DNA of 64,000 nt from Dehalococcoidia bacterium (GTDB taxonomy: Bacteria; Chloroflexota; Dehalococcoidia; Lucifugimonadales; CATOSD01), in the NCBI GenBank assembly GCA_965203135.1, contig CBDBBO010000001.1, forward strand, positions 1,678,071 through 1,742,070, written 5' to 3'. Below are positions 1,997-62,050 of the stretch, one piece after another. Both the position numbers and the translations under genes were made by a program. The notes beneath the pieces were generated by a model. The model saw only the letters and a list, made by a program, of their open reading frames with translations. It did not search any database and was not told where the DNA came from. How positions within the stretch are numbered: the first letter of the stretch is position 1; each line of letters begins with the position of its first letter.

Positions 1997-4465
1997 ATGA
2001 GCAGCATCGTGAGAAGGGCGCTGGGCGCACTGAAGAGGCTCCTCCGCTGGCGCACAGTTCTGGTGGCCGTCTTTGTGCTGGTCGCCATCGCCGTGGGCTA
2101 CGGCGCTTACACGCTGCTGGGCGGCTCATCGCAGACCGCGTTGGAGGAGAACCAGCGTGAGCTTCCCGTGCGGATGGGGGTGCTGACCAGAGAGATCTCA
2201 ATCGACGGCAGCATCGTGTTTCCGGAGAAGGAGACGCTGACGTTCGCGTCCCGCGGATTCGTCGATGAAATCCTGGTCAGCGAAGGCGAGGAAGTGAAGG
2301 CGGGCCAAACACTCGCGAGGCTGGACGCCGAGAGCGTTGCCGCGCTGCGCCAGGCCGCCGCCCAGGCGGAGTTGGACCTGCTGAAGGCGCGAGACGACCT
2401 CGCCGCCGCCGAGAATCCGACTTTGCTACTTGCGGAGTCCAGGCAGGCGGTGCTGGACGTCAGGGCGGCGCTGCGGGCAGCACAGCGGGAACTGGACACG
2501 CTGCTCAATCCCCCGGCTCACGCGCTGGCTCAGGCCAGGGCAGCAGAGGTGGATGCGAGGGCAGCGCTGCGGGCAGCACAGCGGGAACTGGACACGCTGC
2601 TCGATCCCCCGGCTCACGCGCTGGCTCAGGCCAGTGCAGAGGTGGTGGACGCTAGGGCCGCCGTTCGTGCGGCCTGGCGGGAACTGGACACGCTGCTGAA
2701 TCCTTCGGATCATACGATCGCTCAGGCCGAGAGCATGGTCGTCGAGGCCGAGGCGGCTCTGCGAGATGCCCGGGAGAGGCTGACCAACGAGCGTGGTGAC
2801 GCCCAAGCCCAGGTTGACGCCGCGCTGGAGGACCTGGACCTCGCCAAGCGTCGCCTGGTGGACGCCAGAGACGACAGCGGCTACCAGGAACACCGAAAGG
2901 CCATCGCCGACGCGGAGCGGAAGTACGCGCAGGCGGTCCGCAAGTGGACGGGCGCCGACCTCACCGAAGATGAGCTTGCCCTGTCTCCGAGTGCCCTGTT
3001 CGAAGCCTGGCGGCTCGATCCCGACGCGGCCTACGAGCGGGGCTACGACCCATTTGCCGGTGGTGAGCCGAGAGACGATCCCGCGACCAGATGGAACGAG
3101 ATCACGGTCTACGCGTGGACGGCGTTTTACCCAGCACCCGACTCGATACGAGCCACGTGCGGCGATTCCGAGCTGCTGCCGGTCGGAGCCGGCGGGGGTG
3201 AACCACTATGCGTTCTGAGGGAGATCAACAGCGCATGGGAGTCCTTGGACGAGGCGAGAGGCAGGCTCAGCAGGGCATTGGTCCAGCACGAGACCGGCAT
3301 CGCGGAGGCAGAGGTGGCCGTGCTCCGGTCTGAGAGGTCTCTAGCTGAGGCGGAGAAGGCGCTGGCGGGCCTCGACGGTGGTCCCAGGGTCAAACTGCTG
3401 CTGGGGCGGCTGGACCTCGCCGAGTCCAACCTGGCGAAAGCGGAGGCGGACCTTGATAAGCTGAGCGCGCCCGACCCCGTCGAGGTGGAGGCCATGCGCG
3501 ATCGGGCGGCCCTTGCCGAGGCGAACCTGGCGCAGGCGGAGGCGGACCTAACCAGGCTGAGCGCGCCCGACCCCGTGGAGGTGGAGGCCAAGCGCGACCG
3601 GGCGGCCCTCGCCGAGGCGAGCCTGGCGCAGGCGGAGTCGGACCTAGCGAGGTTGAGCGCACCCGACCCCGTGGAGGTGGAGACCAGACGCGGCAGGGTG
3701 GCTGTCGCCGAGGCGAGCCTGGCGGAAGCGGAGGTGGACCTGGAGAGGCTGACTGCGCGCCGGGAGCTGGAGGTTACGCTGCGGGAAACCGCGCTGATCG
3801 CGGCGCAGGCGAATCTGGACGGCGCGGTGTCCAGGCTCGAGAACTCGACGCTCAAAGCCCCCTGGGACGGCTACGTGTCCAAGATACTGGTGGAGAAGAA
3901 CGAGGAGATAAGCGCCGCAGACGCGGTGCTCGAGCTGATTGATTACGTCGTCGTCGAGGTGGACGGGCGCGTGGACGAATTCGAGGTGCTCGAGTTGGAG
4001 CGCGGCGCGGTTGCGTCGGTCAGGCTGGACGCGCTGCCCGACCAGATGTTGGAAGGCGTGGTCTCCAACATAAGCACAGATGCCAGCAATGAGCGTGGGT
4101 CGGCGACATTCAATGCCAAGGTGAAGTTTGTATTGCCGGACGGGCTGCGCATCCAGGAGGGTCTCCGCGCGACGGCCAAGGTGTCGCTGGGAGAGGAGCG
4201 CGGCCTGTTGGTTCCAAATCCGGCCATCCGCGGCACATACGACCACCCCGCCGTGCTCGTGGTCGGCGGCGTTGAAGTCGAGGAGCGCGCCGTGGTACTG
4301 GGTAGCACCGACGGCTTCTGGACAGTGGTCAGGGAAGGGCTTGCGGAAGGGGAACTGGTCGCCGTCGAATTGGGTCGTCCGGGGGAGGGAGTCTTTGGGA
4401 CGGAAGTGACCGTTGGGGGACCGCAGCCTGAAGAAGAAGAGACCATTGTTGTCGAGGAGCCGTAG
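1997..4465 (+). CDS. HlyD/MacA-family periplasmic adaptor (membrane fusion protein), unusually long at 822 aa
   Basis: GGAGG lies upstream of the ATG. There is an N-terminal TM helix and very long Ala/Leu/Glu coiled-coil segments. The C-terminal beta-barrel/lipoyl-like region ('LKAPWDGYVSKILVEKNEEI', 'ATAKVSLGEERGLLVPNPAI') is typical of HlyD_D23 adaptors. A MacB-type permease gene lies directly downstream. Confidence 0.85.
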   Translation: MSSIVRRALGALKRLLRWRTVLVAVFVLVAIAVGYGAYTLLGGSSQTALEENQRELPVRMGVLTREISIDGSIVFPEKETLTFASRGFVDEILVSEGEEVKAGQTLARLDAESVAALRQAAAQAELDLLKARDDLAAAENPTLLLAESRQAVLDVRAALRAAQRELDTLLNPPAHALAQARAAEVDARAALRAAQRELDTLLDPPAHALAQASAEVVDARAAVRAAWRELDTLLNPSDHTIAQAESMVVEAEAALRDARERLTNERGDAQAQVDAALEDLDLAKRRLVDARDDSGYQEHRKAIADAERKYAQAVRKWTGADLTEDELALSPSALFEAWRLDPDAAYERGYDPFAGGEPRDDPATRWNEITVYAWTAFYPAPDSIRATCGDSELLPVGAGGGEPLCVLREINSAWESLDEARGRLSRALVQHETGIAEAEVAVLRSERSLAEAEKALAGLDGGPRVKLLLGRLDLAESNLAKAEADLDKLSAPDPVEVEAMRDRAALAEANLAQAEADLTRLSAPDPVEVEAKRDRAALAEASLAQAESDLARLSAPDPVEVETRRGRVAVAEASLAEAEVDLERLTARRELEVTLRETALIAAQANLDGAVSRLENSTLKAPWDGYVSKILVEKNEEISAADAVLELIDYVVVEVDGRVDEFEVLELERGAVASVRLDALPDQMLEGVVSNISTDASNERGSATFNAKVKFVLPDGLRIQEGLRATAKVSLGEERGLLVPNPAIRGTYDHPAVLVVGGVEVEERAVVLGSTDGFWTVVREGLAEGELVAVELGRPGEGVFGTEVTVGGPQPEEEETIVVEEP
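2450..2740 (+). repeat. In-frame tandem repeat, about 3 copies of a roughly 96-nt (32-aa) unit inside the adaptor gene
   Basis: 'gctgcgggcagcacagcgggaactggacacgctgctc' recurs at about 2470 and about 2566, with a diverged copy at about 2659. The peptide unit is 'RAALRAAQRELDTLL(N/D)PPAHALAQA'. Confidence 0.75.
3410..3760 (+). repeat. Second in-frame tandem repeat family, about 3.5 copies of a 96-nt unit
   Basis: '(c/t)tgagcgc(g/a)cccgaccccgt' occurs at 3461, 3557 and 3653, an exact 96-nt period. The peptide unit is 'LSAPDPVEVEAxRDRAALAEAxLAQAEADLxR'. Confidence 0.8.
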
Positions 4466-4489
4466 AGCGCCAGCGAGAGCGAGTTAGCC

Positions 4490-5815
4490 TTGAGCGCCAT
4501 AGACGTCCTGAGAACAGCTTTAGGGTCTGTGAGAAGCAACAAGCTCAGGTCCGTGTTGACGCTGCTGGGCATAATCATCGGCATAACCGCCGTTACGGTG
4601 CTGATGACCATCGGCAGGGGCGTTCAGCGCGGCATCACTGCGCAGATCGAGGCACAGGGGACTAACCTGCTGTTCGTCTCCGCAACGTTCAGGGGGCCGG
4701 ACCTGGCGCCGCCCGCGCGGGAGGGCGGCTCGTTTGGCTACGCCGCCGCGTCCAGCCTACGGCCACTTCCGCTTACGCTGGAGGACGCCTATGCGCTGAT
4801 CGACCCCGTGCTCGCGCCGTCGGTCAAGTCGAGCGTACCGTACAAACACGTCAGCGCCCGGATAGTGCCGGCGGGAGGAGCGCACCCGGGCGGCTGGGTG
4901 GAGACCCAGGCGGCGGGTGTGACGCCGGAGTACGCGCGGATGCGCAACGTAGAAATGGCGCAGGGAGAGTTCATCACGGACGCCCACCTGAGGAATCGCG
5001 CGCTTGTGGCGGTCATAGAAGAGTCGATGGCCGAGCGTCTGTTCACCACCCGGAACCCCGTGGGCCAGCCGATAAGATTCAACGGGCGCCTGTTCACGAT
5101 CATTGGAGTGAGTGAAAGTACGGGAATAAGCTTCTTCGGCGGCGGCGGCGAAGAGGTTCTCATACCCATAACGACGGCGCTGTACCGGTTGGACGAGCCG
5201 TCGCCGTTCGGCGATCCCGGGTCCGTGGACACCATCTACGCGGAGGCTGTCAGCCCGGAAGCGGTGGAGGACGCCAAGGAGGAGATTCGCCTCATACTGC
5301 GGCTGCGGCACCGCCTGACCGGGCAGGACGACTTCGAGATCGACACGCTCCAGGAGCTTATCGAGTCCCTCAACCAGATAATCGCGGTGTTCGTGCTGTT
5401 TCTGGGCACCATAGCCGGTATCTCGCTCCTGGTGGGCGGGATAGGGGTTATGAACATCATGCTGGTCTCGGTTACAGAGAGGACGCGAGAGATAGGCATA
5501 CGCAAGGCGATGGGGGCGAAGCGGCGGGACGTGCTGTTTCAGTTCGTTGCTGAGGCGGTGCTGCTGACGATAGGAGGTGGAGCCATCGGGCTGCTGCTGA
5601 GCCTCTCTCTCACGCCCGCCATCAACCTGCTGGTGAGGTTCATCGTGACGGAGGGGGACCCGAGTTCGACGGCGGCCGCTCCGGGCGTGGGGTTCGACCC
5701 CGGAATCGCGGCGGTGGCGCTGCTGGTGTCGGCGACTATCGGGCTGTGCTCCGGTATCTACCCTGCGCTGCGCGCCTCCAGGATGCACCCTATCGAGGCG
5801 CTGCGGTACGAGTAG
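4490..5815 (+). CDS. ABC transporter permease, MacB/FtsX family (MacB periplasmic domain plus FtsX domain), no ATPase domain
   Basis: TTG start. The N-terminus 'LRTALGSVRSNKLRSVLTLLGIIIGITAV' and C-terminal 'TREIGIRKAMGAKRRDVLFQFVAEAVLL...YPALRASRMHPIEALRYE' are hallmark FtsX/MacB motifs. Confidence 0.88.
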   Translation: MSAIDVLRTALGSVRSNKLRSVLTLLGIIIGITAVTVLMTIGRGVQRGITAQIEAQGTNLLFVSATFRGPDLAPPAREGGSFGYAAASSLRPLPLTLEDAYALIDPVLAPSVKSSVPYKHVSARIVPAGGAHPGGWVETQAAGVTPEYARMRNVEMAQGEFITDAHLRNRALVAVIEESMAERLFTTRNPVGQPIRFNGRLFTIIGVSESTGISFFGGGGEEVLIPITTALYRLDEPSPFGDPGSVDTIYAEAVSPEAVEDAKEEIRLILRLRHRLTGQDDFEIDTLQELIESLNQIIAVFVLFLGTIAGISLLVGGIGVMNIMLVSVTERTREIGIRKAMGAKRRDVLFQFVAEAVLLTIGGGAIGLLLSLSLTPAINLLVRFIVTEGDPSSTAAAPGVGFDPGIAAVALLVSATIGLCSGIYPALRASRMHPIEALRYE

Positions 5816-12185: not shown

Positions 12186-12289
12186 GTTTGCCTCCTGGAT
12201 TCGATGTGAGCTCAGGCGCGTTCGCGCCCGTGTTGAGCTAGTGGCGAGTGTAGCAATTTTGGCGTGTGAGCGTCAAATTGAGGGGGTAC

Positions 12290-12726
12290 GAAAAAATCTG
12301 CTCGATTCTGCTACATTCCGCTCATTCCGTAGCTGGGCGGCCCGATGTTTCTGTCACTTTCTGTGAGCCAGGTTGTTAAGGTTCGTCACGCGCATTGCGC
12401 AGGATGTGGCAGAACGCGACCCGTTCGACAAGCTCAAGGCAGGCTCCGGCCCTATTCCGCGACTGGCGGTGATGGAGTCTATGGGATGGATAGTAGCACG
12501 TGCGTGCTATAGAATCAAGAGGGTGGTTCAGGGCTGCGGGAGGGGGTCGGTCACTCGCGTGGGCGACGGTAGTACGAATGTGCATATATTGCAATCAATA
12601 AGGTTGGCGAAAATGCGGTTTTGGGGCGGATTTGTGGGGAGAAATGGCACACGAATGGGAACCGGTGGGACGTGGATGAGAATGGGTGTGGCGTTTGGGT
12701 TACGCGGTTGGGGTGCGATGGGACAG
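12290..12726 (-). repeat. Left copy of a roughly 450-500 bp imperfect inverted repeat (partner at 31031-31530), carrying a promoter-like TTGATT-N17-TACTAT on the minus strand
   Basis: The reverse complement aligns collinearly with 31031-31530. Shared perfect blocks include 'cgcgtaacccaaacgccacac' (21 nt), 'caccctcttgattctatag' (19 nt), 'gtcgcgttctgc' and 'ccgcccagctacgg'. The alignment was done by eye. Confidence 0.65.
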
Positions 12727-12971
12727 CGGTCTTGAGCCTTCAGATGTGAAGGCACACTTGTTTTGGGGCGAGGAGTCAGTATGTGATAGCCCTGCCCGTG
12801 TTAGGCCCTATTGGTGCTATGTTGCTACAGTTTGGAATATGTTAATCTGGTGGCCGCAAAGTGGTCATGTATGCACTTCCAGTCTAATTCATAACTGTAG
12901 TGCTGACATAGGAAAGCAAAGTTATGAATAGGGTACCTGTGGATAGAGAAGAGGTGTGGTAAGGGGCGCCA

Positions 12972-13997
12972 ATGGATCAAGAACGGGCGAAAAGGACCGT
13001 CGGCTGCTTGTTCAGTGGGATGGGAGGATTCGCCTCTGGGCTTGCAAAGTCGGGCTTTGAGATCAGTTGGGCTACCGACAACGACAAGTACGCCTGCGCG
13101 ACATTCCGACACCGATTCCCAGACGTAAACTTGGTCGAGAAAGATGTTCGCAGTCTGTCTGTGTTTGGCGACAGCCTAACTGCGGTTGATGTGCTGACCG
13201 CCGGATTCCCCTGCCAAAGTTTCTCTCAAGCAGGTACGCGACGAGGCCTAGATGACCCACGTGGCAGACTATTTTATGAGATACCGCGTCTCCTGTCAGA
13301 GTACGAACCGGAAGCGCGGCCTCCTCTGGTAATCTTGGAGAATGTGCCGCACCTACTTTATGGAGCAGGAAAGGCTTGGTTCGATAGCGTCCGCCGTGCA
13401 ATTCGGCGTGCGGGGTATTGGTTCAGGGAGCAGTCGTGCTGGACGGTAAACGTGAAAGACGCAACAAGTCTTCCCCAAGACCGAGAACGACTGTTTTTGG
13501 TCGCCGCATCGCGCGCACACTTCAGCTTCAACCCCTTCACTCCTCCCTCTTTGGCCGACACTGGAAACGGGCATCTAAGGGCCCTCAGCGAATTTGTTGA
13601 CCGCACCAAGCCAGGGGCCCCAGAGGCATACTTGCCCAAGGACAACCGCTATTACAAGATGATCGACCGAGAGATGGCATCTGGGGAGTCAGTTTCAAAT
13701 ATATTCCAGTTGAGGCGGTCATACGTCCGTGAAAAGAAAAATGGGTTGTGTCCAACGCTTACTGCCAACATGGGCATTGGAGGACACAATGTGCCATTTG
13801 TGCGAGACTCTTGGGGAATTCGCCGGCTCAGCGTAGAAGAGGTGGCTCGACTACAAGGATTCGACGAGACGGAGTCGCTCTTCCCTGACATGCCGGCGGC
13901 AGAGAAGTATCGACTCTTAGGTAACGCGGTGTGTGTCCACCTAGCTCGTCTAGTGGGGCAGGCCTGCGCAGATATTCTTGACGGGCAAACAGCATGA
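12972..13997 (+). CDS. dcm: DNA (cytosine-5)-methyltransferase
   Basis: Canonical C5-MTase motifs are present. These are I 'FSGMGGF', IV 'GFPCQSFS', VI 'ILENVPHLL', VIII 'QDRERLFLV', IX 'RRLSVEEVARLQGF' and X 'GNAVCV'. Confidence 0.93.
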   Translation: MDQERAKRTVGCLFSGMGGFASGLAKSGFEISWATDNDKYACATFRHRFPDVNLVEKDVRSLSVFGDSLTAVDVLTAGFPCQSFSQAGTRRGLDDPRGRLFYEIPRLLSEYEPEARPPLVILENVPHLLYGAGKAWFDSVRRAIRRAGYWFREQSCWTVNVKDATSLPQDRERLFLVAASRAHFSFNPFTPPSLADTGNGHLRALSEFVDRTKPGAPEAYLPKDNRYYKMIDREMASGESVSNIFQLRRSYVREKKNGLCPTLTANMGIGGHNVPFVRDSWGIRRLSVEEVARLQGFDETESLFPDMPAAEKYRLLGNAVCVHLARLVGQACADILDGQTA

Positions 13998-15949
13998 CTT
14001 CAGACAATTCCGGCATCGGCTGGAACTTTCCACCCACCAATGGAGGGCGCGTCGACGGCTTTAACGATCCCGGTATCGCGCACTTTAGCGGTTCTCCGTA
14101 CTCTAGCCTCGCTCGAGAGACAATACAGAACTCGCTAGATGCGAGAGATAGATATGATCAGCCCGTGCATGTGTCTTTTGAAATGGTCGAGTTGCCGCCG
14201 GCCGACATGGGGCGAGCCGAACTTTCCCTCGCTATAGACGCTAGTCGCGGAGAGGTAGAGCCTGATGACCCTGCGCAACCTGAGCTAATCCGTGCTCAAG
14301 AAGTGCTCGCAAGGGAGAGGGTTCCGTTCTTACGTGTATCGGACCGGAATACGACCGGATTACGAGATAAGCAATGGCGGACTCTGGTCAAAATGCAGGG
14401 CGCGAGCTTTAAGGCAGACCTTGAAGGTGCGGGAGGCTCCTTTGGCATAGGCAAATACGCACCATTTGCCGTATCGACACTCCGCACAGTGTTCTATTGG
14501 ACTTGTTTTAGGGAGAACGGCAGGAATGTCGAACGGTTCCAGGGCAAGTGCGTTCTTATGTCGCACCATCAAGCAGGTACAGAAGTTCAGGGTACCGGGT
14601 TCTTCGGTCTGAGGGACGGCTGTGTCGAAATGACGACCTCCATTCCCGAGTGCTTCCGGCTGACTACGCAAGATTCGCTTCCTATACACGGCACGAGTCT
14701 CGCCATCGCTGGCTTCATGGAAGCCCAGGATTGGCGCAGACGGGTTGCCTCAAGTGTAATCGAGAACTTCTTCTATGCTATTGACCGGGGTCAACTTACG
14801 GTACTCATTGAGCCTGGTGACAAAGACGGAGACTTGTTTGAAATTGATGACGCTACCCTAGGTGATTGCTTCGCGACACTGCTGGACGACAACTCAGACT
14901 CCGAGGAAGACCAGGCTGAAGGGGGAACATCACTTAGTCAGGCTAGAGCGTTCTGGGAGATTTCAGACGCCGATGTGGTCCCAATCGAGAAACAGGACCA
15001 AGACCTCGGACACTGCCGGCTATGGATTCGTGTTCAAGATGGCCTCCCGAGCAGAGTAGGGTTTGTAAGGCGGACAGGCATGCTTGTCACGACGCAACAA
15101 CGCAACTTGATTCGCTTCCCAGGGTTTCGGGACTTCGCGGCTCTGTGCGTCTTTGAGGACCCTGCCGGCAACGAACTCTTGCGACGAATGGAGAACCCAA
15201 GACATGATCAATTCGAGCCGGACCGACTGCCGGAAGCAGATAGACAGCGAGGCAGACGGGCTCTGAAACGAATTACAGATTGGATACGGAGTGAAGTGCG
15301 AAAGTTAGCAGGTCCGCCTGAGGGTGGCAGATCCACAGTGCTGTCGGAGCTAGCTGTCTACCTGCCAGACTTGCAGCCTGATGAACCGTTTGAAGATGCT
15401 GGCAGCGAGAACGGAGGCACGGGGGAACCGGGTTTTGGGGAACGTGTCACCCTTGCACTTAAGCCCGTTCGTCGACCTACTCCGCCTACTTTACCCGCTA
15501 GCGAAGAATCGAACGAGGACGGAGACAGCCCCGGGGACGACGTAGGCAATGCTGGCGGGGGAGGTACTGGTGAAGGGGAAGGTGGAGGGGGCACAGACGG
15601 TACTGGTGAAGGGGAAGGTGAAGGCGGTACAGGGAGCCGTGGCGGCCGTCGAGCCAGAGTGAGAGGGATTCCCATATCTGGAGTCCGCATTTTGTCGATA
15701 CCTGGCCAAGAGAACTGCTACCAATTGAGCTTTCGCTCCAGCACCGGCGGTGAGGCGAGTCTTGAATTAGAAGAAGCCGGAGACTCGACTACTATCCGGC
15801 GCGACGACATCCGGCCTGTTGCTGAAGGTGTCTCCCTTGGGTGTGTACCACTGTTGGAAGGTCAGAGAACAACGATAGACATCACCGCCGACAGACCTAT
15901 CGGAGAAAGGGCGTGGCGTCTACGCGCCGTAGCCAACGACGGCGACTAA
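13994..15949 (+). CDS. GHKL-superfamily ATPase-like protein (paraMORC/MutL-like head) with a large uncharacterised C-terminal region and a Gly/Glu-rich linker
   Basis: ATGA overlap with dcm. N-box 'RETIQNSLDA', G1-like 'VSDRNTTGL' and G2 box 'GGSFGIGKYAPF' are present. The remaining roughly 450 aa are unassignable by eye. Confidence 0.7.
   Translation: MTSDNSGIGWNFPPTNGGRVDGFNDPGIAHFSGSPYSSLARETIQNSLDARDRYDQPVHVSFEMVELPPADMGRAELSLAIDASRGEVEPDDPAQPELIRAQEVLARERVPFLRVSDRNTTGLRDKQWRTLVKMQGASFKADLEGAGGSFGIGKYAPFAVSTLRTVFYWTCFRENGRNVERFQGKCVLMSHHQAGTEVQGTGFFGLRDGCVEMTTSIPECFRLTTQDSLPIHGTSLAIAGFMEAQDWRRRVASSVIENFFYAIDRGQLTVLIEPGDKDGDLFEIDDATLGDCFATLLDDNSDSEEDQAEGGTSLSQARAFWEISDADVVPIEKQDQDLGHCRLWIRVQDGLPSRVGFVRRTGMLVTTQQRNLIRFPGFRDFAALCVFEDPAGNELLRRMENPRHDQFEPDRLPEADRQRGRRALKRITDWIRSEVRKLAGPPEGGRSTVLSELAVYLPDLQPDEPFEDAGSENGGTGEPGFGERVTLALKPVRRPTPPTLPASEESNEDGDSPGDDVGNAGGGGTGEGEGGGGTDGTGEGEGEGGTGSRGGRRARVRGIPISGVRILSIPGQENCYQLSFRSSTGGEASLELEEAGDSTTIRRDDIRPVAEGVSLGCVPLLEGQRTTIDITADRPIGERAWRLRAVANDGD
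15563..15620 (+). repeat. In-frame 22-nt perfect repeat at a 36-nt period encoding the G/E-rich linker
   Basis: 'ggtactggtgaaggggaaggtg' occurs at 15563-15584 and 15599-15620. The peptide is 'GTGEGEGGGGTDGTGEGEGEGGTG'. Confidence 0.85.
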
Positions 15950-15951
15950 CC

Positions 15952-16809
15952 ATGAGGTTTGATCCAGGAAAGGCTTGGCCCCATCCCGTGCTCCGTCCGC
16001 CAACTTATGGAGACGATTATCCGCGTGCGGAGTTTGAGGTTGAAATAGAAGTTGAGCGTATCCAAGGCAGCACATCCGTAGACGTCACAGCAGAGTTTGA
16101 GCTCAGCGACCAAGACCTGCTCGGTCTCGTTGTGGATGGAGCGGCTCAGTATGTCTTGCTAATCAAGGCGTCAAGAACCCACTTCCGAGAGATGATCTCT
16201 GCGGAAGAACCGCTCATTGAGAGGATCTTTTCGGGAGGGGACTTGTCTGGTCGTGTGGAGTTCGCGCCCTTTCTGATATGCACAAAGGATCTGACCGACT
16301 TTCGTGCTGAAGGGTGGCACTCAGATTTCACAGGGCGGACATTTAACATATCCGCTGGCTCAGTGCTGGCAGAGGATGTGCCGAAGGACTATTGGGTCGA
16401 CACGGCTGATGAGGCGCCCCTCGGTTCGATCTTTGGGCACAAGTTCCGGCCGGACGTGCCCAACGGGCGCTGGGAACTTGAGCTGGCGGAAGAGCGGGTC
16501 TGGATCGTGATGTCCAAATCGGATTCGGAGTTGTACGCGGAGGCGCGAGAGCGGGCTAGACGTAGTCCTGAAGGTCAGAATTTGATGAATGGCCTGTACT
16601 TGCCTGCTCTGATTGCAGTACTGAACGAAGTGGACAGGAACATCGGAGACTACAGTGACTACCGATGGTTCGCGTCGCTTGACCATCGCCTACAGACGGT
16701 TGATTGCAAGGAGTTGGGGGTCTCGGACGCCAATCGTGTGGTCGATGCTCAAAGAGTCCTCGACATGCCCTTCACCAAGATGCCCATGATTGCAGAAGCA
16801 GGGACTTAG
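15952..16809 (+). CDS. Hypothetical protein (285 aa), no recognisable family
   Basis: The ATG at 15952 lies 2 nt after the upstream stop and has normal amino-acid composition. The track ORF start at 15841 overlaps the upstream gene and was rejected. I could not find a clean PD-(D/E)xK, HNH or P-loop motif. Confidence 0.7.
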   Translation: MRFDPGKAWPHPVLRPPTYGDDYPRAEFEVEIEVERIQGSTSVDVTAEFELSDQDLLGLVVDGAAQYVLLIKASRTHFREMISAEEPLIERIFSGGDLSGRVEFAPFLICTKDLTDFRAEGWHSDFTGRTFNISAGSVLAEDVPKDYWVDTADEAPLGSIFGHKFRPDVPNGRWELELAEERVWIVMSKSDSELYAEARERARRSPEGQNLMNGLYLPALIAVLNEVDRNIGDYSDYRWFASLDHRLQTVDCKELGVSDANRVVDAQRVLDMPFTKMPMIAEAGT

Positions 16810-16814
16810 GACGT

Positions 16815-17576
16815 ATGCCCAACCTGAGGTATTACACGTCTGCGGTCGTTGAGGACCTTCGAACAAGAGTCGCGGAGCACCTTGACTGGTACTATGCACC
16901 AGAGGGCAGTCCTTTTTCTGTTGCGCCTGTAGGAGGCGTAAGGGAATCGAGCATAACAGCCCCTAAGCTCGCTGGGCTCTTGGCTGTGAACGAAGAGCGC
17001 CCATTTGCCACTGACGTCGAAAACGCACTCGCAGTGTATGAGGCTCTATCCGCATTGACGCCGCACCAAGCCTCAATAGAGCGGATGTGGGTGTATCTGT
17101 GCCACCACGATTGCCCTCAGTACGTCGCCGCGCGTTGGCTGAACCGACGGCCAGAGTCGGATGAGGACGCAGTTCGCGAGGTTCGGAATCACTTTTTTGC
17201 GGTCGGCAATCGAGCGCTCATACGGGATAATGCGGTCTCAAGGCTTTGGTGGCTCGGAAAAATCGCCTATGACGTTGATCCTAACGCCCCGCGTGAGTTT
17301 CTGACGATTCTCCTCCACCGGCAGGATGTGCGTTCTGCTTTAATTGAGCGTCCGTCAGTGTCGACGAATCGGCGAGTGTTGCGCGGAATATATGAGGTAA
17401 TGGCGGAGTACTGGTCAGACGGCGGAGCACTGTTCACTCGGGAGATTTTTCGGTCGTGGATGATCGCTTTGAACCGTCGCGGCGGAGTAATTCTCTTAGA
17501 CGCACTCCCCGAAGACGCGTTGAGACAGCTATTGCGTGAAGAGGCGCGTGTGGCTATAGAAGAGTATTCGGCTTAG
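16815..17576 (+). CDS. Hypothetical protein (253 aa), no recognisable family
   Basis: The ATG at 16815 lies 5 nt after the upstream stop. The protein is helical-looking ('ERMWVYLCHHDCPQYVAARWLNRR', 'AVSRLWWLGKIAY'). No catalytic motif was recognised. Confidence 0.7.
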   Translation: MPNLRYYTSAVVEDLRTRVAEHLDWYYAPEGSPFSVAPVGGVRESSITAPKLAGLLAVNEERPFATDVENALAVYEALSALTPHQASIERMWVYLCHHDCPQYVAARWLNRRPESDEDAVREVRNHFFAVGNRALIRDNAVSRLWWLGKIAYDVDPNAPREFLTILLHRQDVRSALIERPSVSTNRRVLRGIYEVMAEYWSDGGALFTREIFRSWMIALNRRGGVILLDALPEDALRQLLREEARVAIEEYSA

Positions 17577-17590
17577 ATTAGTAGGCTGCA

Positions 17591-18043
17591 TTGACTGATA
17601 ACCTGAGTCCTGAAGACCGTTCATGGTGCATGTCGCGGATACGCTCTCGCGATATGAAACCAGAGTTGGCCGTCCGCTCGATGGTACATCGACTTGGATA
17701 TAGGTTCCGCCTGCATAGGCGCGATTTGCCCGGTTCACCCGACTTGGTGCTGCCACGCCATGGGGCGGTGATTTTCGTCAATGGTTGTTTCTGGCACTGG
17801 CACCCCGATCCTGACTGTCCGATCGCAGGGTTGCCAAAATCGAATCTGGACTACTGGGAACCAAAGTTGACTCGAACCCGGATCAGAGACCAAGAACATA
17901 CAGACAATCTTGAGGCAGATGGGTGGAGGGTATTGGTAGTTTGGGAATGTCAGTTGAGGAGCCCTGTTGCAGCCCTTGAGATGATAGCCGAGTTCCTCGA
18001 GGCTACAGACGCCAAGATTCTCAGGCCTGTAGCAGTACGGTGA
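17591..18043 (+). CDS. vsr: Very-short-patch repair endonuclease
   Basis: 'SPEDRSWCMSRIRSRDMKPELAVRSMVHRLGYRFRLHRRDLPGSPDLVLPRHGAVIFVNGCFWHWH' is the canonical Vsr pattern. TTG start lies 14 nt after the upstream stop. Confidence 0.92.
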   Translation: MTDNLSPEDRSWCMSRIRSRDMKPELAVRSMVHRLGYRFRLHRRDLPGSPDLVLPRHGAVIFVNGCFWHWHPDPDCPIAGLPKSNLDYWEPKLTRTRIRDQEHTDNLEADGWRVLVVWECQLRSPVAALEMIAEFLEATDAKILRPVAVR

Positions 18044-19677: not shown

Positions 19678-19971
19678 GGCGATCCTCGACAGGCGTTCGC
19701 CCGTAGTGTGGGCAGGCTACCATGCGGCCTGTGCAGGGGCGTAGGCTAACGGGGGCGTGGTACTCGGGGCTTTCACCCTGACCCATTCGGCAGGCTCAGG
19801 GCAGGCACACTAGATTCCTCGGCTACGCTCGGAATGGCAGAGGTGGGAGGGGGAAGGGAACAAACGGCTTGTTTCCCATGCGGGCCGGGCTGTTGTACAC
19901 TACGCCGCAGCCGTTGCGTTGGCCCTGTTTTGTATTTGGACAGTATTCGTAGCACCCGACGAGGCGGAGCG

Positions 19972-25100: not shown

Positions 25101-26114
25101 ATGGGCAGACCATACGCTTTGCTGAGATCGGGATTTCCGTACCACATGACGCTGGGGATGCGGCGCGTGACCTCCAACGCCGTGGACGTGGCGCTGGGTG
25201 ACGGCGGCATCGTGTACGTGCTGTGCCGCGGCGGGCTGGGCACGGAGATACGGGTCATCAACTTCGACGACGAGAACCTGGGCACCATTGGCGGCGCGGG
25301 CGGGGGCGAGGGCCAGTTCACCTGGCCGGCGTGCCTGATACGGGACGCGGAGGAGAACCTGTACGTGTCCGACGAGGCGCTGCACCGCGTATCGGTGTTC
25401 AGCAAGGAGCGCGAGTTCCTGGCAAGCTGGGGCGAGCACGGCAGCGGAGAGGGACAGCTCGACAGGCCGTCGGGCATCGCGTTCGACGCCGACGAGAACG
25501 TGTACGTGTCGGATACGCTGAACCACCGCGTGCAGAAGTTCACCAAGGAGGGCGAGTACCTGGGCGGTTGGGGTAGCCGGGGCAGTGGCGAGGGCGAGTT
25601 CGACATGCCGTGGGGCATCACGGTGGACGAGCTGGGAGACGTGTACGTGGCGGACTGGCGCAACGACCGGGTGCAGAAGTTCTCGGCGGACGGTGAGTTC
25701 CTGGCGGTGTTCGGCGAGTCCGGCTGCGGCGACGGCCAGTTCAGCCGGCCGTCGGGCGTGTGCGTGGACGCGGATGGGGACGTGTACGTGGCGGACTGGG
25801 GGAACGACCGGGTGCAGCTCTTCAACGAGCACGGCCAGTACGTGGAGAAGTTCATCGGCGACGCCAGCCTGTCCAAGTCCGGCTTGCAGTACGTGCTGTC
25901 CAACCAGATAACGCTGAGGCTGCGGGACATGAGCCGGCTGGAGGCGGGTCGGCGACTGCGCGGTCCGATCAGCGTGCGGGTGGACGACGAGGGGCGGCTG
26001 TACATCCCGGACTTTGGTTCGCACCGGGTCCAGATCTACAAGAAAGAGGCGTACCCGCTCACCGAGAGCCAGATAGCGCCGCTGCCGCGCAACCCGATGT
26101 TGTTGACGACGTAG
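25101..26114 (+). CDS. NHL-repeat beta-propeller protein
   Basis: There are five to six repeats of 'G-x-G-x-G-(Q/E)-(F/L)-x-x-P-x-G-(I/V)-x-V-D-x-x-G-x-(V/L)-Y-V-(A/S)-D-x-x-N-(D/H)-R-V-Q-x-F'. The ATG at 25101 lies after GGGGG. Confidence 0.88.
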   Translation: MGRPYALLRSGFPYHMTLGMRRVTSNAVDVALGDGGIVYVLCRGGLGTEIRVINFDDENLGTIGGAGGGEGQFTWPACLIRDAEENLYVSDEALHRVSVFSKEREFLASWGEHGSGEGQLDRPSGIAFDADENVYVSDTLNHRVQKFTKEGEYLGGWGSRGSGEGEFDMPWGITVDELGDVYVADWRNDRVQKFSADGEFLAVFGESGCGDGQFSRPSGVCVDADGDVYVADWGNDRVQLFNEHGQYVEKFIGDASLSKSGLQYVLSNQITLRLRDMSRLEAGRRLRGPISVRVDDEGRLYIPDFGSHRVQIYKKEAYPLTESQIAPLPRNPMLLTT

Positions 26115-26212: not shown

Positions 26213-29200
26213 ATGTCCAAGCGTAGCAGGCGCAAGAAACAGCGACGCAAGGAAAAGCGGCGCAATGCTCCAGAGGTGCGGCTCGAAAGGGAGCCGTCGG
26301 TGAATTCGGGGCCACAGGCTTCGACCTCGCCGATTGGGAACGTCCGACGGCCGATTTTGAACCCATGGGGCTCGCCAGTGAGGTCTCAACCCAGTTCGAC
26401 CGAGAAGACCCAACGGAAGGACTGGACTCCCATGCGGCACGCCAGCGCGGACTTGGCCTACACCGACCGGAAAGGCCCGACGGAAGAACTGGACCCGATA
26501 CCGCCAACCATTGAGGACTCGACTCAGACTGAATGGGCAGGACCGTCAGGCCCGATCGGCGTATACATCGACGAGGAACGGCGAGGGACACTCAGCGCCT
26601 ACCGCAGCCAACCGAACCTTGTAGACGAACACGCCAATCACGAGCAAGACACGGCCCGGGGCGGCTACGCTTATCGGCAGCTGTTCGAGTTGGTGCAGAA
26701 TAGCGCCGACGCCCTGGCTGATTTGGACGGCGGGCGCATCGAATTGCGCCTGACCTCCGACTATCTCTACTGCGCCGATGATGGACGGGCCATCGACTCG
26801 GACGGCGTGAGAGCCCTCATGTTTTCCCACCTGTCTCCCAAGCGCGGAACAGCGGAAATCGGGAGATTTGGGCTAGGATTCAAGTCTGTCCCTGGCGTCA
26901 CCGATTCCCCCGAGTTTTTCAGCCGCTCCGGTTCATTCCGGTTCGACGTCGAAAGAGCGCGGGAAGAGATACGACGTGTCGCCCCTGACGCCGAGCGCTA
27001 CCCAGCGCTGCGGCTGCCTGTTGCTATCGACCCACTGCCGGAGATGGAGGCCGACACAGTTCTACGCGATTTGGCCGATTGGGCTACCAACATCGTGCGC
27101 CTGCCGCTCAAGCCAGGGGCCAGGGAGTCCCTGTTGCAGCAGGCCAAGGACTTCCCGCCGGAGTTTCTGCTGTTCGTCGAGCACGTGTCGGAACTGAACA
27201 TCCAAGCCGATAGCGATGCCCAGCGCTCCATCAGGCTGAGGCGCCTAGGCGACTTCCGTAAGCCCGCTAACGGTGATCAGCGACCTTCTATGAAAGTGGC
27301 AGTGCCGAAGCTGATCCGCGAAAGCGATTTCCATGTGCTCGCGGACGGTGATAAGGAAGCTCAGTGGATGGTCGTTAGTACCGTTCACAAGCTTTCCGAG
27401 GACGCTAGGGCCGACAGCCGAAGCCTCGATGACGCCACGGAAGTAGAGATCAAGTGGGCGGCCCCTGTAGAAAGGTTGAATGAGCCTGGCCGCTTCTGGG
27501 CATTCTTTCCCACGCAGACTTCGAGCTTGCTCGCCGGCATACTTAACGCGCCGTGGAAGACAAACGAGGACCGGCAGAACCTGCTGCCTGGGGTCTACAA
27601 CGACGAGCTGATTGACGCGGCGGCGGCAATGGTGGCCAAAGCTGTGCCACGGTTGTCCAACAAGAGCGTACCCGCTCGCCATCTTGACGCACTGCCTCGT
27701 CGAGAAGAAGCCGGTGACAGTGAACACAGCAAGAGACTTCGGGATCAACTGCAGGCGAACCTGCGTGGTGTGAGAATCGTTCCAGACCAGTTGGGCATAC
27801 TCCACAGGCCCACCGAGCTCATGTACGCTCCGACCGAAATCACTGACCCGAGACGGGGGGCTGCACGTGCGCTCGGGAGGTGGGGCGAGTACGAGGGCCG
27901 ACCCAAGAACTGGGCGCACCACAGCGCGCTCACTCGTAACAGGTTAGCGGCCATCAGATCGGTCATGCCAAACAGGGTTGTTCGTAGTTCCTACGGAGGG
28001 GTGACGTTTACGACTCAGCATGGTCCCGTGAAACTCGAGGTGGCAACGGTGGATGAGTGGCTGCAAGCGTTGGTAGACGATGCGGATATCCCGGAGAGGC
28101 ATCTCGAGAGATCGGCCACCGCGATCCAGACTGCGGCGCTGATACCAGAAGCGATCCGGCAGGGCAATAGCCTCGGTCGAATAGTGCTTACGACTAGGGG
28201 TAGCTGGGTCGAACCTGATCCCGAATCCGTGTTTCTCGGCGGCGGGTTTGGCGGCGGCTCAGCCACGGTGGTGCATCCGCAACTGGAGGCCGATCCGGAA
28301 ACACTGAGCGCGCTGAAGGCGCTCGGCATAGGGCCCGCTTCAGCGGAGACTGAGCTCAGTGCTGCGGCCGATAAACTGCTGGTTTACAGACCGTACTACA
28401 GGGGAACGCCGCCAGATGGCGACTGGCTCAGTTTCTGGCGTCTTGCACGGAACGTTGAGCATGACACCGCTTATGAGATCATTCAAGCCCATGAGCACTG
28501 GCAGAGTTCGCTGCGTGTTCGCACAATCGCAGAGGTGTGGCGCTCCCTGAACCATGCCTTGCTACCCGGACCAATCATTCCGGCAGACGGTAGTGGCGAT
28601 CCCGACATGGCAATAGACATACGCTTTCACGAGGCGGATCTTTCCTTGCTGAGGCAGCTTGGTGCGGTGGACACGCCCTCTGCGGGGCGCGAACTGTCAC
28701 TGGAGCATATGTGGAGATTTCGTGGGAAGTGCAGAAGCACTTTCATTAGATCCGCAGAGAGTGAAGTAGGGCATTCACCGCGTGACCATATGCTCAACTT
28801 TGAGATTCTCGCTACCACAAGCGGTCCTTTGGATGTGTTAGAGCTTCTTTCCGAATACCAGAACGCGGAGTACACGTGGCGTCTCCTCAGCTTGCGCGAC
28901 ACCTACTCACAGTGGACGATGCGTCATGACACCCGAGACATTTACCCGCCCATGGATTTCGATTCGCCAGCACTGGAAGTGCTTCGGGAACACGGGCGGA
29001 TCGTTACGGATGAGGGCATTCGACCGCTCTCTGACGGGCTGGGCAATCCACCAAAAGACATTGCAGTGTTGCGCAAGCTGCTTTCGCACCCTCAAGCCGA
29101 CAGAATTAGAGAAGCCTTCGGACTGCCGGACGACGAGGAGTTACCGGTCGAGCCGCTTGACGAGGACGCGCCCATACCGCTGCTCGACGAGTGGCCAGGT

Positions 29201-31021
29201 CTCAAGCCTCACATCACGGTACAGCAAGGCAGTCTCGATTTGGTTCGCTGTGACGGGTTTCGCACATTTGGCGGGGTTGAACCGGAATGTGTCCTGAGGG
29301 GCGGTATCGTGTACGTGGTTCGCCAATACGAGGAGGAGCGTGAGCTTCGGTCTGTGCTGCGGGAGATAGGCGTCAGTCTCAGAGAGAGCGAGATTAGACG
29401 GGTGCTCCTGGGTATCACTCCAGAAGACATACAGAAGGCACGGGCCAAGGTCAGGAACTGTGACACCGACGAGGAACGTCTTCTGGGGGCAGTGGGTGAA
29501 CGAGCATTGAGGCGTGGGTTGCCGTCGGGGCTTCTCGCGATACTCGAAGAAGAGAGCCTCGGAGCGCTTCCGGGTGTTGAGGTTGCGAAAGCCGCTATCG
29601 CCACGTATCACACCGGCGCGCTGCGAGAGTACCGCTACGCGATAGAGCACCTGGATCCTCCACGCCAGTGGGCAGGGCGATCCAGCGCAATCCAGTTCGT
29701 GCGCTCTCTCGGCTTCAGCGATGAGTGGGCCGGCGAATCAAACTCTCGGCAAGAGCCGTTCCTGGAAGTCGACGGCCCTCTCTCGCTTCCCAAACTCCAT
29801 CCATACCAGCGTGTCGTCGTTGACAACACGAGAAGCCTGCTGCGCTCCGGCGGCGCACTCGGAGAACGACGAGGTATGATAAGCATGCCCACAGGCTCGG
29901 GCAAGACTCGCGTCGCGGTGCAAGCGATCGTCGAGGCTATGCGGAAGGACGGGTTCAAGGGCGGAGTCATCTGGGTTGCCGACCGCCGGGAACTCTGTGA
30001 TCAGGCGGTGGAGGCTTGGAGGGAGGTATGGGCAAGCGAGGGCACTGAGAAGGCGCGGCTTCGAATCTCGAGGATGTGGGGAGGTCAGGCTAGACCGCGG
30101 CCAGACGCCGATATGCATGTTATTGTCGCGACGATTCAGACGCTTTACGCCAAGACCATGTCTCCGGGGAACGATTACGACTTTCTAGCAGACTTCAAGC
30201 TGCTTGTGTTTGACGAAGCCCACCGGTCAATATCGGCTTCATCTACCTCCGTAATGGAAGAATTGGGGCTGACACGGTGGCGAAGGGAGCATGAACCACT
30301 ACTCATCGGCCTGACCGCGACGCCGTACAGGGGGCGCGACGAAGATGAGACACGGCGGCTCGTGAATCGCTATGGACGGAACCGGCTGGACTCCGGTGCG
30401 TTCAAAAGCGACCGCCCGGAGGACGTGATATCGGAACTGCAATCCATGCGGGTGCTTGCGCGAGCCGACCACGACCTCATTGAGGGCGGCAAGTTTACAA
30501 TGTCTCCAGACGAGCTGAAGCAATCACTGGATACTCCTTGGTTGCCCCAAAGCGTCGAGAGCCGGATCGCCGGCAATGCCGAGCGGACCCGGCGCATCAT
30601 CAGAGCATACCATGAGCACATCGGCTCAGACTGGCCTGCCTTGGTGTTCGCGACGTCCGTAGAACACTCGCAGACGGTTGCTGCCTTGCTCACTCGCGAT
30701 GGAATCAGGGCCCGCGCCGTAAGCGCGAACACCGAAGCTTCAGTTCGTAGGCGAATCGTGGAAGAGTTTCGGGCGGGTGAAATCGACGCGCTGGTGAACT
30801 ACGGCATTTTCCGTGAGGGCTTCGACGCGCCGAGGACCAGGGCAATAGTTGTGGCTCGTCCGGTCTACAGCCCCAACCTGTACTTCCAGATGATTGGCAG
30901 GGGACTGAGGGGTGTGAAGAATGGTGGCAACGATAGGTGTCTCATCCTCAACGTGAGAGACAACATCGCCAACTACCGGCGCAGTCTGGCGTTTTCCGAA
31001 CTGGACTGGCTGTGGGACTGA
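26213..31021 (+). CDS. Giant (1602 aa) fusion protein: basic N-tail, sacsin-like GHKL ATPase domain, about 900 aa of unassigned sequence, and a C-terminal SF2 (DEAH, ResIII-like) helicase
   Basis: GHKL motifs are 'QLFELVQNSADALAD' (N box), 'CADDGRAID' and 'GRFGLGFKSV' (G2). Helicase motifs are 'LHPYQ', I 'SMPTGSGKT', II 'LLVFDEAHRS', III 'GLTATPYRG', V 'FREGFDAP' and VI 'QMIGRGLRG'. It is a single uninterrupted ORF with lower GC than its flanks by eye. Confidence 0.8.
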   Translation: MSKRSRRKKQRRKEKRRNAPEVRLEREPSVNSGPQASTSPIGNVRRPILNPWGSPVRSQPSSTEKTQRKDWTPMRHASADLAYTDRKGPTEELDPIPPTIEDSTQTEWAGPSGPIGVYIDEERRGTLSAYRSQPNLVDEHANHEQDTARGGYAYRQLFELVQNSADALADLDGGRIELRLTSDYLYCADDGRAIDSDGVRALMFSHLSPKRGTAEIGRFGLGFKSVPGVTDSPEFFSRSGSFRFDVERAREEIRRVAPDAERYPALRLPVAIDPLPEMEADTVLRDLADWATNIVRLPLKPGARESLLQQAKDFPPEFLLFVEHVSELNIQADSDAQRSIRLRRLGDFRKPANGDQRPSMKVAVPKLIRESDFHVLADGDKEAQWMVVSTVHKLSEDARADSRSLDDATEVEIKWAAPVERLNEPGRFWAFFPTQTSSLLAGILNAPWKTNEDRQNLLPGVYNDELIDAAAAMVAKAVPRLSNKSVPARHLDALPRREEAGDSEHSKRLRDQLQANLRGVRIVPDQLGILHRPTELMYAPTEITDPRRGAARALGRWGEYEGRPKNWAHHSALTRNRLAAIRSVMPNRVVRSSYGGVTFTTQHGPVKLEVATVDEWLQALVDDADIPERHLERSATAIQTAALIPEAIRQGNSLGRIVLTTRGSWVEPDPESVFLGGGFGGGSATVVHPQLEADPETLSALKALGIGPASAETELSAAADKLLVYRPYYRGTPPDGDWLSFWRLARNVEHDTAYEIIQAHEHWQSSLRVRTIAEVWRSLNHALLPGPIIPADGSGDPDMAIDIRFHEADLSLLRQLGAVDTPSAGRELSLEHMWRFRGKCRSTFIRSAESEVGHSPRDHMLNFEILATTSGPLDVLELLSEYQNAEYTWRLLSLRDTYSQWTMRHDTRDIYPPMDFDSPALEVLREHGRIVTDEGIRPLSDGLGNPPKDIAVLRKLLSHPQADRIREAFGLPDDEELPVEPLDEDAPIPLLDEWPGLKPHITVQQGSLDLVRCDGFRTFGGVEPECVLRGGIVYVVRQYEEERELRSVLREIGVSLRESEIRRVLLGITPEDIQKARAKVRNCDTDEERLLGAVGERALRRGLPSGLLAILEEESLGALPGVEVAKAAIATYHTGALREYRYAIEHLDPPRQWAGRSSAIQFVRSLGFSDEWAGESNSRQEPFLEVDGPLSLPKLHPYQRVVVDNTRSLLRSGGALGERRGMISMPTGSGKTRVAVQAIVEAMRKDGFKGGVIWVADRRELCDQAVEAWREVWASEGTEKARLRISRMWGGQARPRPDADMHVIVATIQTLYAKTMSPGNDYDFLADFKLLVFDEAHRSISASSTSVMEELGLTRWRREHEPLLIGLTATPYRGRDEDETRRLVNRYGRNRLDSGAFKSDRPEDVISELQSMRVLARADHDLIEGGKFTMSPDELKQSLDTPWLPQSVESRIAGNAERTRRIIRAYHEHIGSDWPALVFATSVEHSQTVAALLTRDGIRARAVSANTEASVRRRIVEEFRAGEIDALVNYGIFREGFDAPRTRAIVVARPVYSPNLYFQMIGRGLRGVKNGGNDRCLILNVRDNIANYRRSLAFSELDWLWD

Positions 31022-31030
31022 CCAAAACCC

Positions 31031-31530
31031 CTGTCCCAAAGCATCCCCAATCGCGTAACCCAAACGCCACACACTTGCTCTTCCACAGGCCCACTGCCGC
31101 CACCCATTTGCGCTACTCTGCCACACAAATTCCCGCTTTCAGGCCCACTCCCACCACATTATGTCAAGTGGCCCTGCCTCGCGCCGACAAGTCGGCGGAT
31201 TCACCCTGGCGTAGCGGCGAGTCTCCGACCCTTCCGTTCCGAGCGTAGCCGAGTAATCTGGGGCGTTTACCCGCGCCTATGACCCTGAACAACACCCTCT
31301 TGATTCTATAGTACGTGCGTGCTATTTTCTACTTGGCAGGCGCTGTGACCGCCCGTTGGCGGCATGGGAAAGCCAGAATCCGGCCCGGCACCACCGTCGC
31401 GTTCTGCGACATTATGGCGTCCTGCCAGTGACAGACCCTGACTCCGGTGTACTGCGCGAATGACAAGAGAATCGAACCGCCCAGCTACGGGATGCATCAA
31501 AATGCATCAGAATGCAACGAATTTTCGTAA
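31031..31530 (+). repeat. Right copy of the imperfect inverted repeat (partner at 12290-12726), carrying a promoter-like TTGATT-N17-TATTTT facing the amt gene
   Basis: It is collinear with the reverse complement of 12290-12726 (see that feature). It begins about 10 nt after the giant gene's stop. Confidence 0.65.
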
Positions 31531-61647: not shown

Positions 61648-62050
61648 TATGTAGCTAACCTCCGTGGGCTTCGAGGGTGGCGCTTGGAGTCGTATACAAA
61701 AAAACCCGCCCCTGCGCAAAGGGACGGGATTGCTAATCTCGTGGTACCACCCAATTTACCCCGGCGGGCGCTACCTGACAGGCGCGCTACGCGGGGCCAC
61801 TTGTGGGCTGTATAACGGCGGCCAACCGCCCGACCCTAAGCGGAGAGGAGGGGCTAAATTACCAAGCGCGCAGAGCGCGTGATATGAACGCTAGAGCTCT
61901 GCAACGTCTGGACTCCTCTGTGCTTCAGGCCGGGTGCTCCGGGGCGAGTTCTCGAAGGTCCTGGCGCCGGCTCACACCACCGCCGGCTCTCTGGGGCCGG
62001 TATCTCCGGTACTACTCCCCTTCGACGCATCTGACTGTATTTCAGTTAGG
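61648..62050 (-). promoter_or_regulatory. T-box riboswitch leader upstream of ilvB, probable Leu (CUC) specifier
   Basis: Read on the minus strand, the T-box sequence is 'AAAUUGGGUGGUACCACGAG' (61738-61757). The F-box-like element is 'GCCGUUA'. Stem I elements are 'GGAGUAGUACC', 'CCAGAGAGCCGG' and 'GGUGGUGUGA'. The specifier-loop context 'GAGAA-CUC-G' places CUC at 61946-61948. Confidence 0.8.
61698..61728 (-). terminator. Intrinsic terminator of the T-box leader
   Basis: On the minus strand it reads CCCGUCCC-UUUGCGCA-GGGGCGGG followed by U7. It lies immediately 3' of the T-box sequence. Confidence 0.8.

Follow-up and report, generated by a model that had tools for sequence, protein, structure and literature searches.

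What do the three proteins do that lie between a C5 cytosine DNA methyltransferase (Dcm) and a very-short-patch repair endonuclease (Vsr) in the genome of a Dehalococcoidia bacterium? The question is raised by an operon in the stretch of contig CBDBBO010000001.1 (assembly GCA_965203135.1) analysed here, which is 64,000 nucleotides (nt) long and is referred to as the window, where five co-directional open reading frames (ORFs) occupy positions 12972-18043, all on the + strand. C5-methylase restriction-modification (R-M) systems classically follow the order methylase, X, Vsr. A first-pass annotation, made from the letters of the DNA alone, had read the first of the three middle genes (here genes A, B and C) as a GHKL ATPase, the other two as unassignable and the system as an uncharacterised one. 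Neither the lack of an assignment nor the absence from catalogues was borne out, as PADLOC has a model for each gene, PDC-M33A, PDC-M33B and PDC-M33C, matching genes A, B and C with E-values of 4.1e-99, 3.6e-41 and 1.1e-43, respectively, and each being the only or the best match. The arrangement agrees also: PDC-M33 comprises the same three proteins in the same A-B-C order as the window, where they are adjacent and co-oriented with junctions of 2 and 5 nt, and this order recurs wherever the trio is complete.

The PDC entries are PADLOC's 'putative defence candidates', found via guilt-by-embedding and, according to the literature, unpublished and mostly unvalidated; PDC-M33 is one such entry, without a described function. 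Our literature searches returned no paper naming PDC-M33 or DUF6339 (the Pfam family of gene C), and nothing on GHKL ATPases in combination with anti-phage activity and a cytosine methyltransferase, whilst a search of PHROGs gave no matches. What is already known is thus the trio as a PADLOC candidate, together with the theme of GHKL ATPases in R-M-like operons with Dcm and Vsr, which the first-pass annotation correctly attributed to Iyer, Abhiman and Aravind and which was published in 2008. To this the present analysis adds an obligate four-gene dcm-A-B-C unit, a fold-level assignment for gene A, a natural fusion of genes B and C, a reading of the Vsr or glycosylase position as a repair slot, and the recognition of a nuclease in neither A nor B. 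We interpret the cassette, with moderate confidence, as a methylation-gated, restriction-modification-like defence unit whose core is dcm-A-B-C and in which Vsr is the repair companion of Dcm.

Linkage of the methyltransferase to the trio

Searching species genomes with gene A gave 75 loci (L001-L075) from more than a dozen phyla, in about 70 of which dcm-A-B-C is conserved in order and orientation. The strongest test of linkage was the reciprocal one, in which metagenomes were searched with Dcm alone: among the best 80 of 288 relatives (39-66% identity), gene A lay directly 3' of dcm, followed by B and C, in 59 of the 60 contigs having room downstream, indicating that this Dcm clade is dedicated to the trio. 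Measured against the window, sequence identity co-varies among Dcm, A, B and C across 64 loci (Spearman rho 0.88-0.96), and the cassette junctions range from -5 to +9 nt. In the window's clade the linkage between Dcm and the trio is obligate and two-way. The earlier proposal of a conserved, mobile, methylation-coupled cassette, for which synteny of the three middle genes in other genomes was essential, is accordingly upheld by the synteny found here, by the linkage and by the mobility data described below.

These observations bear upon the possibility that A-B-C is a self-contained, methylation-independent defence module, acting for example in abortive infection or DNA sensing, that merely co-travels with Dcm. 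PADLOC defines PDC-M33 by A, B and C alone, from candidates found by embedding; moreover, some trios have no C5 methylase within 5 kb and lie beside AlwI/Dam, type I hsdS/hsdM or MmeI systems, and in the plasmid and phage copies it is an ORF of about 75 amino acids (aa), not dcm, that precedes A. Such independence is nevertheless difficult to reconcile with the near-invariable succession of dcm and A in the metagenomic contigs, with a Dcm that co-diverges with the trio (rho of about 0.88) and overlaps the start codon of A, and with the recurrence of a C5 methylase near the trio in differing layouts, which is hard to square with hitch-hiking. We consider a self-contained module rather unlikely.

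The differing layouts are found in phage NatCom_9291, Priestia, Deinococcus, L070, L073 and L075: the C5 methylase lies 1 kb downstream of the trio in the phage copy, is accompanied by a nearby Sau3AI/MutH-like enzyme in Priestia, and forms part of a dcm-vsr pair upstream of the trio in Deinococcus. The best-scoring copies of PDC-M33 begin with the ORF of about 75 aa, whereas the window's clade has a translationally coupled Dcm 5' of A and usually Vsr after the trio; the ORF is absent from this clade, dcm holding its position. Directly 5' of A, ORFs of 74-80 aa were located in L079 (1907-2131), L081 (4744-4974), L082 (4725-4955) and L083 (4569-4811). The product of this ORF, possibly a fourth subunit or a regulatory protein, gave no family match for the phage, Deinococcus, Priestia and Ligilactobacillus copies. 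In Ligilactobacillus salivarius (L083), the trio is preceded at 2600-4550 by type I hsdS and hsdM genes, the annotation of the displayed stretch lacking hsdR, and is followed by MmeI-family fragments; methylases of other kinds may also serve as partners of the trio.

The distribution of the cassette fits that of a horizontally acquired mobile element. Cassettes 80-86% identical to that of the window share neither flanks nor an insertion site with it, and similarity cuts across taxonomy and phyla: copies of the Dehalococcoidia type are 58-61% identical to those of Bryobacterales, Alphaproteobacteria, Arenicellales and Poribacteria, whereas with those of other Dehalococcoidia the identity falls to 41-44%. 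More distant trios are carried by plasmids (in Lactococcus, Priestia, Ligilactobacillus, Deinococcus and haloarchaea), by a temperate phage of Clostridium innocuum, in which the trio adjoins the integrase, and by IMG/VR contigs; the Firmicute and prophage trios score highest against the PDC-M33 models (5e-205, 6e-98 and 1e-193). A mobile defence element is suggested by the unshared flanks and the plasmid, temperate-phage and IMG/VR copies, together with a drop in GC content: the fraction is 0.54-0.58 over 12-18 kb of the window and 0.61-0.68 in the flanks on both sides, in keeping with the AT-richness noted at first pass.

Two loci (L053 and L147) contain two cassette copies or fragments side by side, the order in L147 being B-C, an opposite-strand vsr, a fragment of C and then dcm-A-B-C. 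Inserts of 0.9-2 kb interrupt cassette genes in L003, L006, L011, L020, L035, L038, L042 and L024; in at least seven relatives they carry DDE transposases (DDE_5, DDE_Tnp_1, DDE_3 or IS66 family), and that of L024 has no Pfam match. The idea that these insertion sequences signal toxicity was dropped, because dcm, the trio and vsr are struck roughly in proportion to gene length. Many of the host metagenome-assembled genomes (MAGs) belong to sponge-associated taxa (Poribacteria, Entotheonella), and the bin names COS3, IRC2/IRC4, RHO2 and STY2 are presumably sponge-derived, which suggests that the cassette has been exchanged within one habitat.

Folds and conserved residues of the five proteins

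By the fold of its AlphaFold model (mean predicted local distance difference test score, pLDDT, 72), gene A is a GHKL ATPase with an S5-type transducer, of the kind found in Hsp90, GyrB and MORC proteins, in line with the GHKL reading proposed at first pass. The GHKL and transducer region spans residues ~1-445 and is followed by a disordered linker of about 110 residues rich in Gly, Glu and Pro (~445-555; nt ~15326-15658) and by a C-terminal beta-sandwich (~557-647). Foldseek aligned the model with the N and M domains of GRP94 (2e-7), the ParE/GyrB 43K module (7e-7 to 2e-5) and the ATPase modules of MORC2 and MORC3 (1.5e-5 to 1e-4) in the PDB, all with probability 1.0 over 390-500 aligned columns, the TM-scores being depressed (0.2-0.45) by the linker and the additional domains. 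The ATP-binding motifs are intact, so that gene A is a predicted ATPase: in 74 homologues, down to 25% identity, motif I (E42/N46/D49, within the N box ETIQNSLDA reported at first pass) and motif III (G148/G151/G153 and K154, within the G2 box GGSFGIGKY) are at least 90% conserved, as are D117, T120 and G122 of an atypical motif II, D117-R-N-T-T-G122. Part of the linker is repeat-encoded, in line with the first-pass reading, by a 36-bp tandem repeat (1.9 copies, score 119, 91% matches). Sequence-level methods were less informative, gene A having no match in Pfam or NCBIfam, its sequence and profile none among PDB chains, and 60 homologues none in Pfam (including HATPase_c and HATPase_c_3) at E<=10.

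Gene B is predicted (pLDDT 79) to comprise a beta-rich region (28-187) and a helical domain (189-271). Foldseek comparison of this model with the PDB and with BFVD viral models gave weak, generic matches to fibronectin type III (FnIII) and immunoglobulin (Ig)-like beta-sandwiches alone, an enzymatic fold being recognised in neither database, and neither the sequence nor the profile matched PDB chains. Gene B lacks matches in Pfam and NCBIfam, 60 homologues being likewise unmatched in Pfam at permissive thresholds. Gene C, in which the first-pass annotation had found no familiar motif either, is by contrast a member of the DUF6339 family (Pfam PF19866, 8e-46). The few universally conserved residues of gene B, among them K7, P12, L14, R15, D22 and Y23 of an N-terminal peptide, do not resemble a nuclease site.

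At E<=1e-3, a search of 1.84 billion proteins gave 1581 representatives of the DUF6339 family. Gene C has many conserved Arg, Trp and His positions. It matched no sequence of solved structure, even with a 103-sequence profile, and permissive Pfam scans of its homologues found nothing besides DUF6339. A candidate HEPN motif (R121x4H126) was discarded, as R121 is not conserved across the broader family; R90x6H97 and an HNH-like H126...N139 are unverified pattern matches, and any catalytic role for them would be putative. In one homologue, P0426 (528 aa), an N-terminal half resembling gene B (27% identity, E 8e-27) is naturally fused to DUF6339, which implies that B and C probably function together as one module. 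Other DUF6339 proteins (P0449, P0456 and P0478) carry unexplained extensions of about 100 aa.

Recognition of a nuclease in neither A nor B raises the possibility of an effector that does not cleave, in which A, as a MORC-like clamp guided by a B/C reader, would entrap, compact or silence DNA lacking the host 5-methylcytosine (5mC) and so block replication or transcription of an invader. Gene A shares its GHKL and S5 fold with MORC2 and MORC3, and DNA-looping roles were proposed for such ATPases by Iyer et al.; the proposal is purely inferential, however, gene C could itself be a nuclease, and the C-terminal beta-sandwich and disordered linker of gene A are foreign to MORC. We hold a silencing effector to be very unlikely.

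The two outer proteins are more readily assigned. Dcm matched Pfam DNA_methylase (PF00145) over its full length (8e-51) and also TIGR00675; its nearest solved relative is M.HaeIII, aligned over Dcm residues 12-330, and its translation contains the C5-methyltransferase motifs FSGMGG, GFPCQSFS, ENV, QDRERLF and GNAV, in agreement with the first-pass reading. The target-recognition region is well conserved across the clade, which suggests one fixed specificity. Vsr, described at first pass as a textbook example, indeed matched TIGR00632 (1.4e-40) and Pfam Vsr and aligned with the E. coli enzyme (1cw0) at 8e-22, and 53 cassette Vsr proteins retain Asp51, His69 and the Zn ligands. A C5 methylase and a Vsr with intact catalytic and Zn residues thus stand in one locus, as in a Dcm-Vsr repair pair.

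The placement of Vsr varies, however: it may lie 3' of C or 5' of dcm, on either strand in both cases, or be missing, and in about one third of the loci it does not adjoin the cassette. In L059 and L063 its slot is occupied by a HhH-GPD/EndoIII Fe-S glycosylase. Glycosylases of this type constitute the other known route of T:G repair after deamination of 5mC, an example being Mig beside M.MthTI. Because Vsr moves around and is sometimes exchanged for an EndoIII-type glycosylase, slot 5 looks like the anti-mutagenic repair companion of Dcm, not an effector. We rejected a separate idea, that a small nuclease always lies 3' of gene C (Vsr here, and in the copies of the phage and of Ligilactobacillus a protein of 167 aa), as the Ligilactobacillus ORF is a fragment of the adjoining MmeI gene, the phage ORF is without any match, and proteobacterial loci hold the EndoIII-type glycosylase in that slot.

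The same slot invites the question of whether the trio as a whole serves repair, A being a MutL analogue and B and C mismatch or lesion sensors that bring Vsr or the glycosylase to T:G mismatches or activate it there; a mobile Dcm would in this way travel with anti-mutator machinery of its own. E. coli MutL is reported in the literature to stimulate Vsr physically and functionally, motif I of gene A (ETIQNSLDA) resembles that of MutL (ELVENSLDA), and the trio, in whose A and B a nuclease was not found, is tied to Dcm with a T:G repair enzyme usually nearby. This likeness to MutL does not extend past motif I, which alone was aligned when gene A was compared by hhalign with the E. coli MutL N-terminal domain (a non-significant probability of 3.6%), and a base-excision glycosylase has no known requirement for a MutL-like clamp. 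A repair accessory would also sit poorly with the third of loci lacking a Vsr beside the cassette, and with trios that occur without Dcm or Vsr in R-M-rich regions of plasmids and beside a prophage integrase. We regard it as distinctly unlikely.

Known relatives and a proposed methylation-gated mechanism

Other known systems resemble the operon in part. In the systems described by Iyer, Abhiman and Aravind in 2008, MORC/paraMORC GHKL ATPases occur in R-M operons with cytosine methylases and Vsr, and the window operon has in common with them the GHKL and S5 modules, the cytosine methylase and Vsr in one operon, and a sporadic, laterally mobile distribution. The motif E400xxxH404 of gene A, at least 98% conserved and situated at the end of, or just past, the S5/transducer region, recalls the ExxxH in the C-terminal part of S5 that these authors gave as the paraMORC2 hallmark; the comparison, made with the published description, is a lead only. 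Whereas paraMORC systems were described with superfamily II (SF-II) helicases and restriction endonuclease (REase)-fold, HNH or TIR nucleases, the partners of gene A in the window operon are DUF6339 and a beta-sandwich protein; a helicase is absent and a nuclease was not recognised among them, and Pfam GHKL models miss gene A. Type II R-M systems of the EcoRII type share the order of methylase first, 'restriction slot' in the middle and Vsr last, the setting in a mobile island of low GC, and a cognate full-length C5 methylase; here, in contrast, the restriction slot consists of three proteins including an ATPase, with a nuclease fold recognised in neither A nor B. Finally, the GHKL-Shedu protein VcSduA (paraMORC3) provides a precedent for an N-terminal GHKL ATPase, as in gene A, within a proven anti-phage defence for which the ATPase is required. 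VcSduA, however, consists of one polypeptide that ends in a DUF4263 PD-(D/E)xK nuclease, and it lacks a methylase, whereas gene A ends in a beta-sandwich and is without such a nuclease.

On our preferred reading of a methylation-gated unit, we infer subunit roles and an effector step as follows. Dcm would mark the host's own DNA at a single fixed site. Gene A would form an ATP-dependent, dimerising clamp on DNA, like MORC, MutL or GyrB, and gene C would contact DNA through its conserved Arg/Trp/His surface, supplying either recognition of the unmethylated site or a so far unrecognised catalytic activity. Gene B may be a beta-sandwich/helical adaptor joining C to A, and the resulting A-B-C complex would cleave or block incoming DNA without the 5mC mark. 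Vsr, or the Mig-like glycosylase of some relatives, would solely mend the T:G mismatches arising from deamination of 5mC.

Several observations weigh against this scheme. Foldseek and Pfam recognised a nuclease fold or motif in neither A nor B, and PDC-M33, like PDC systems in general, is an unvalidated candidate. No C5 methylase lies within 5 kb of the trio in the Lactococcus, Ligilactobacillus and Halomicrobium plasmids, so that the trio can persist without a dedicated Dcm. In L072 it adjoins a complete EcoRII-type enzyme and Vsr, with the EcoRII-C enzyme and vsr directly after gene C, which makes the trio there an additional module and not the sole restriction function. In addition, the two relatives of the window cassette that were examined with annotated flanks (L076 and L077) sit among housekeeping genes, not in defence islands.

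Genomic setting and wider meaning

The features of the locus are collected in Table 1. The tight packing that had been claimed, an ATGA overlap at 13994-13997 followed by gaps of 2, 5 and 14 nt, agrees with the junction sequences. For genes B and C the ATG codons at 15952 and 16815 were adopted and longer mechanical ORFs discarded, these being the starts used by hundreds of homologues, whose N-termini read MRFDPGKAWP... (gene B) and M(T/P)xLRYYT... (gene C).

Table 1. Features of the cassette and its leader, in window coordinates.
Feature	Positions	Strand	Description
Non-coding leader 5' of dcm	12186-12971		Inverted-repeat arm ~12390-12740; promoter-like site 12487-12515
dcm	12972-13997	+	C5 cytosine DNA methyltransferase, 341 aa; stop overlaps gene A start (ATGA)
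Gene A (PDC-M33A)	13994-15949	+	651 aa; predicted GHKL (Bergerat) ATPase with S5-type transducer, linker, beta-sandwich
Tandem repeat in gene A linker	15563-15632	+	36 bp x 1.9; Tandem Repeats Finder
Gene B (PDC-M33B)	15952-16809	+	285 aa; predicted beta-rich region and helical domain
Gene C (PDC-M33C)	16815-17576	+	253 aa; Pfam DUF6339
vsr	17591-18043	+	150 aa, TTG start; very-short-patch (T:G mismatch) repair endonuclease

The leader, 785 nt of intergenic DNA between the preceding gene and dcm, contains one arm of the inverted repeat that the first-pass annotation had placed beside the operon. The repeat is present though imperfect: it extends over ~330 nt and pairs 12390-12740 with 31000-31400 through two near-identical blocks, one of which holds a -10-like TAGAAT, and a third short piece of it lies at 19799-19840. 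Rfam has no family for the leader or the repeat, which may be a dispersed intergenic repeat, a promoter or a non-coding RNA element of the host genome. The sole Rfam family in the window is a T-box leader (RF00230, 110 bits) at 61717-62034 on the - strand. Elsewhere in the window are a 1602-aa ORF (26213-31021) and in-frame coding tandem repeats with units of 96 nt (two arrays) and 141 nt, at 2429-2716, 3407-3790 and 25440-25853.

Should the trio prove to be the restriction arm of a system marked by Dcm, methylation-gated immunity of this kind would be widespread: at 90% identity gene A forms at least 786 clusters, and more than 12 bacterial phyla, haloarchaea, plasmids and prophages carry copies. 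The components of such immunity would be a GHKL clamp and two folds without known function, one of them perhaps concealing a new nuclease or a new reader of cytosine methylation. Were the effector instead nuclease-free, the cassette would represent a bacterial counterpart, and possible antecedent, of the link between eukaryotic MORC proteins and DNA methylation, and DUF6339 would be a new DNA-binding fold that discriminates 5mC from C. The function is directly testable, as culturable hosts carry copies: Priestia megaterium, Lactococcus lactis and Ligilactobacillus salivarius on plasmids, and Clostridium innocuum in a prophage. The sharing of the cassette across phyla, apparently among sponge-symbiont MAGs, would moreover represent the exchange of defence genes within a single habitat.

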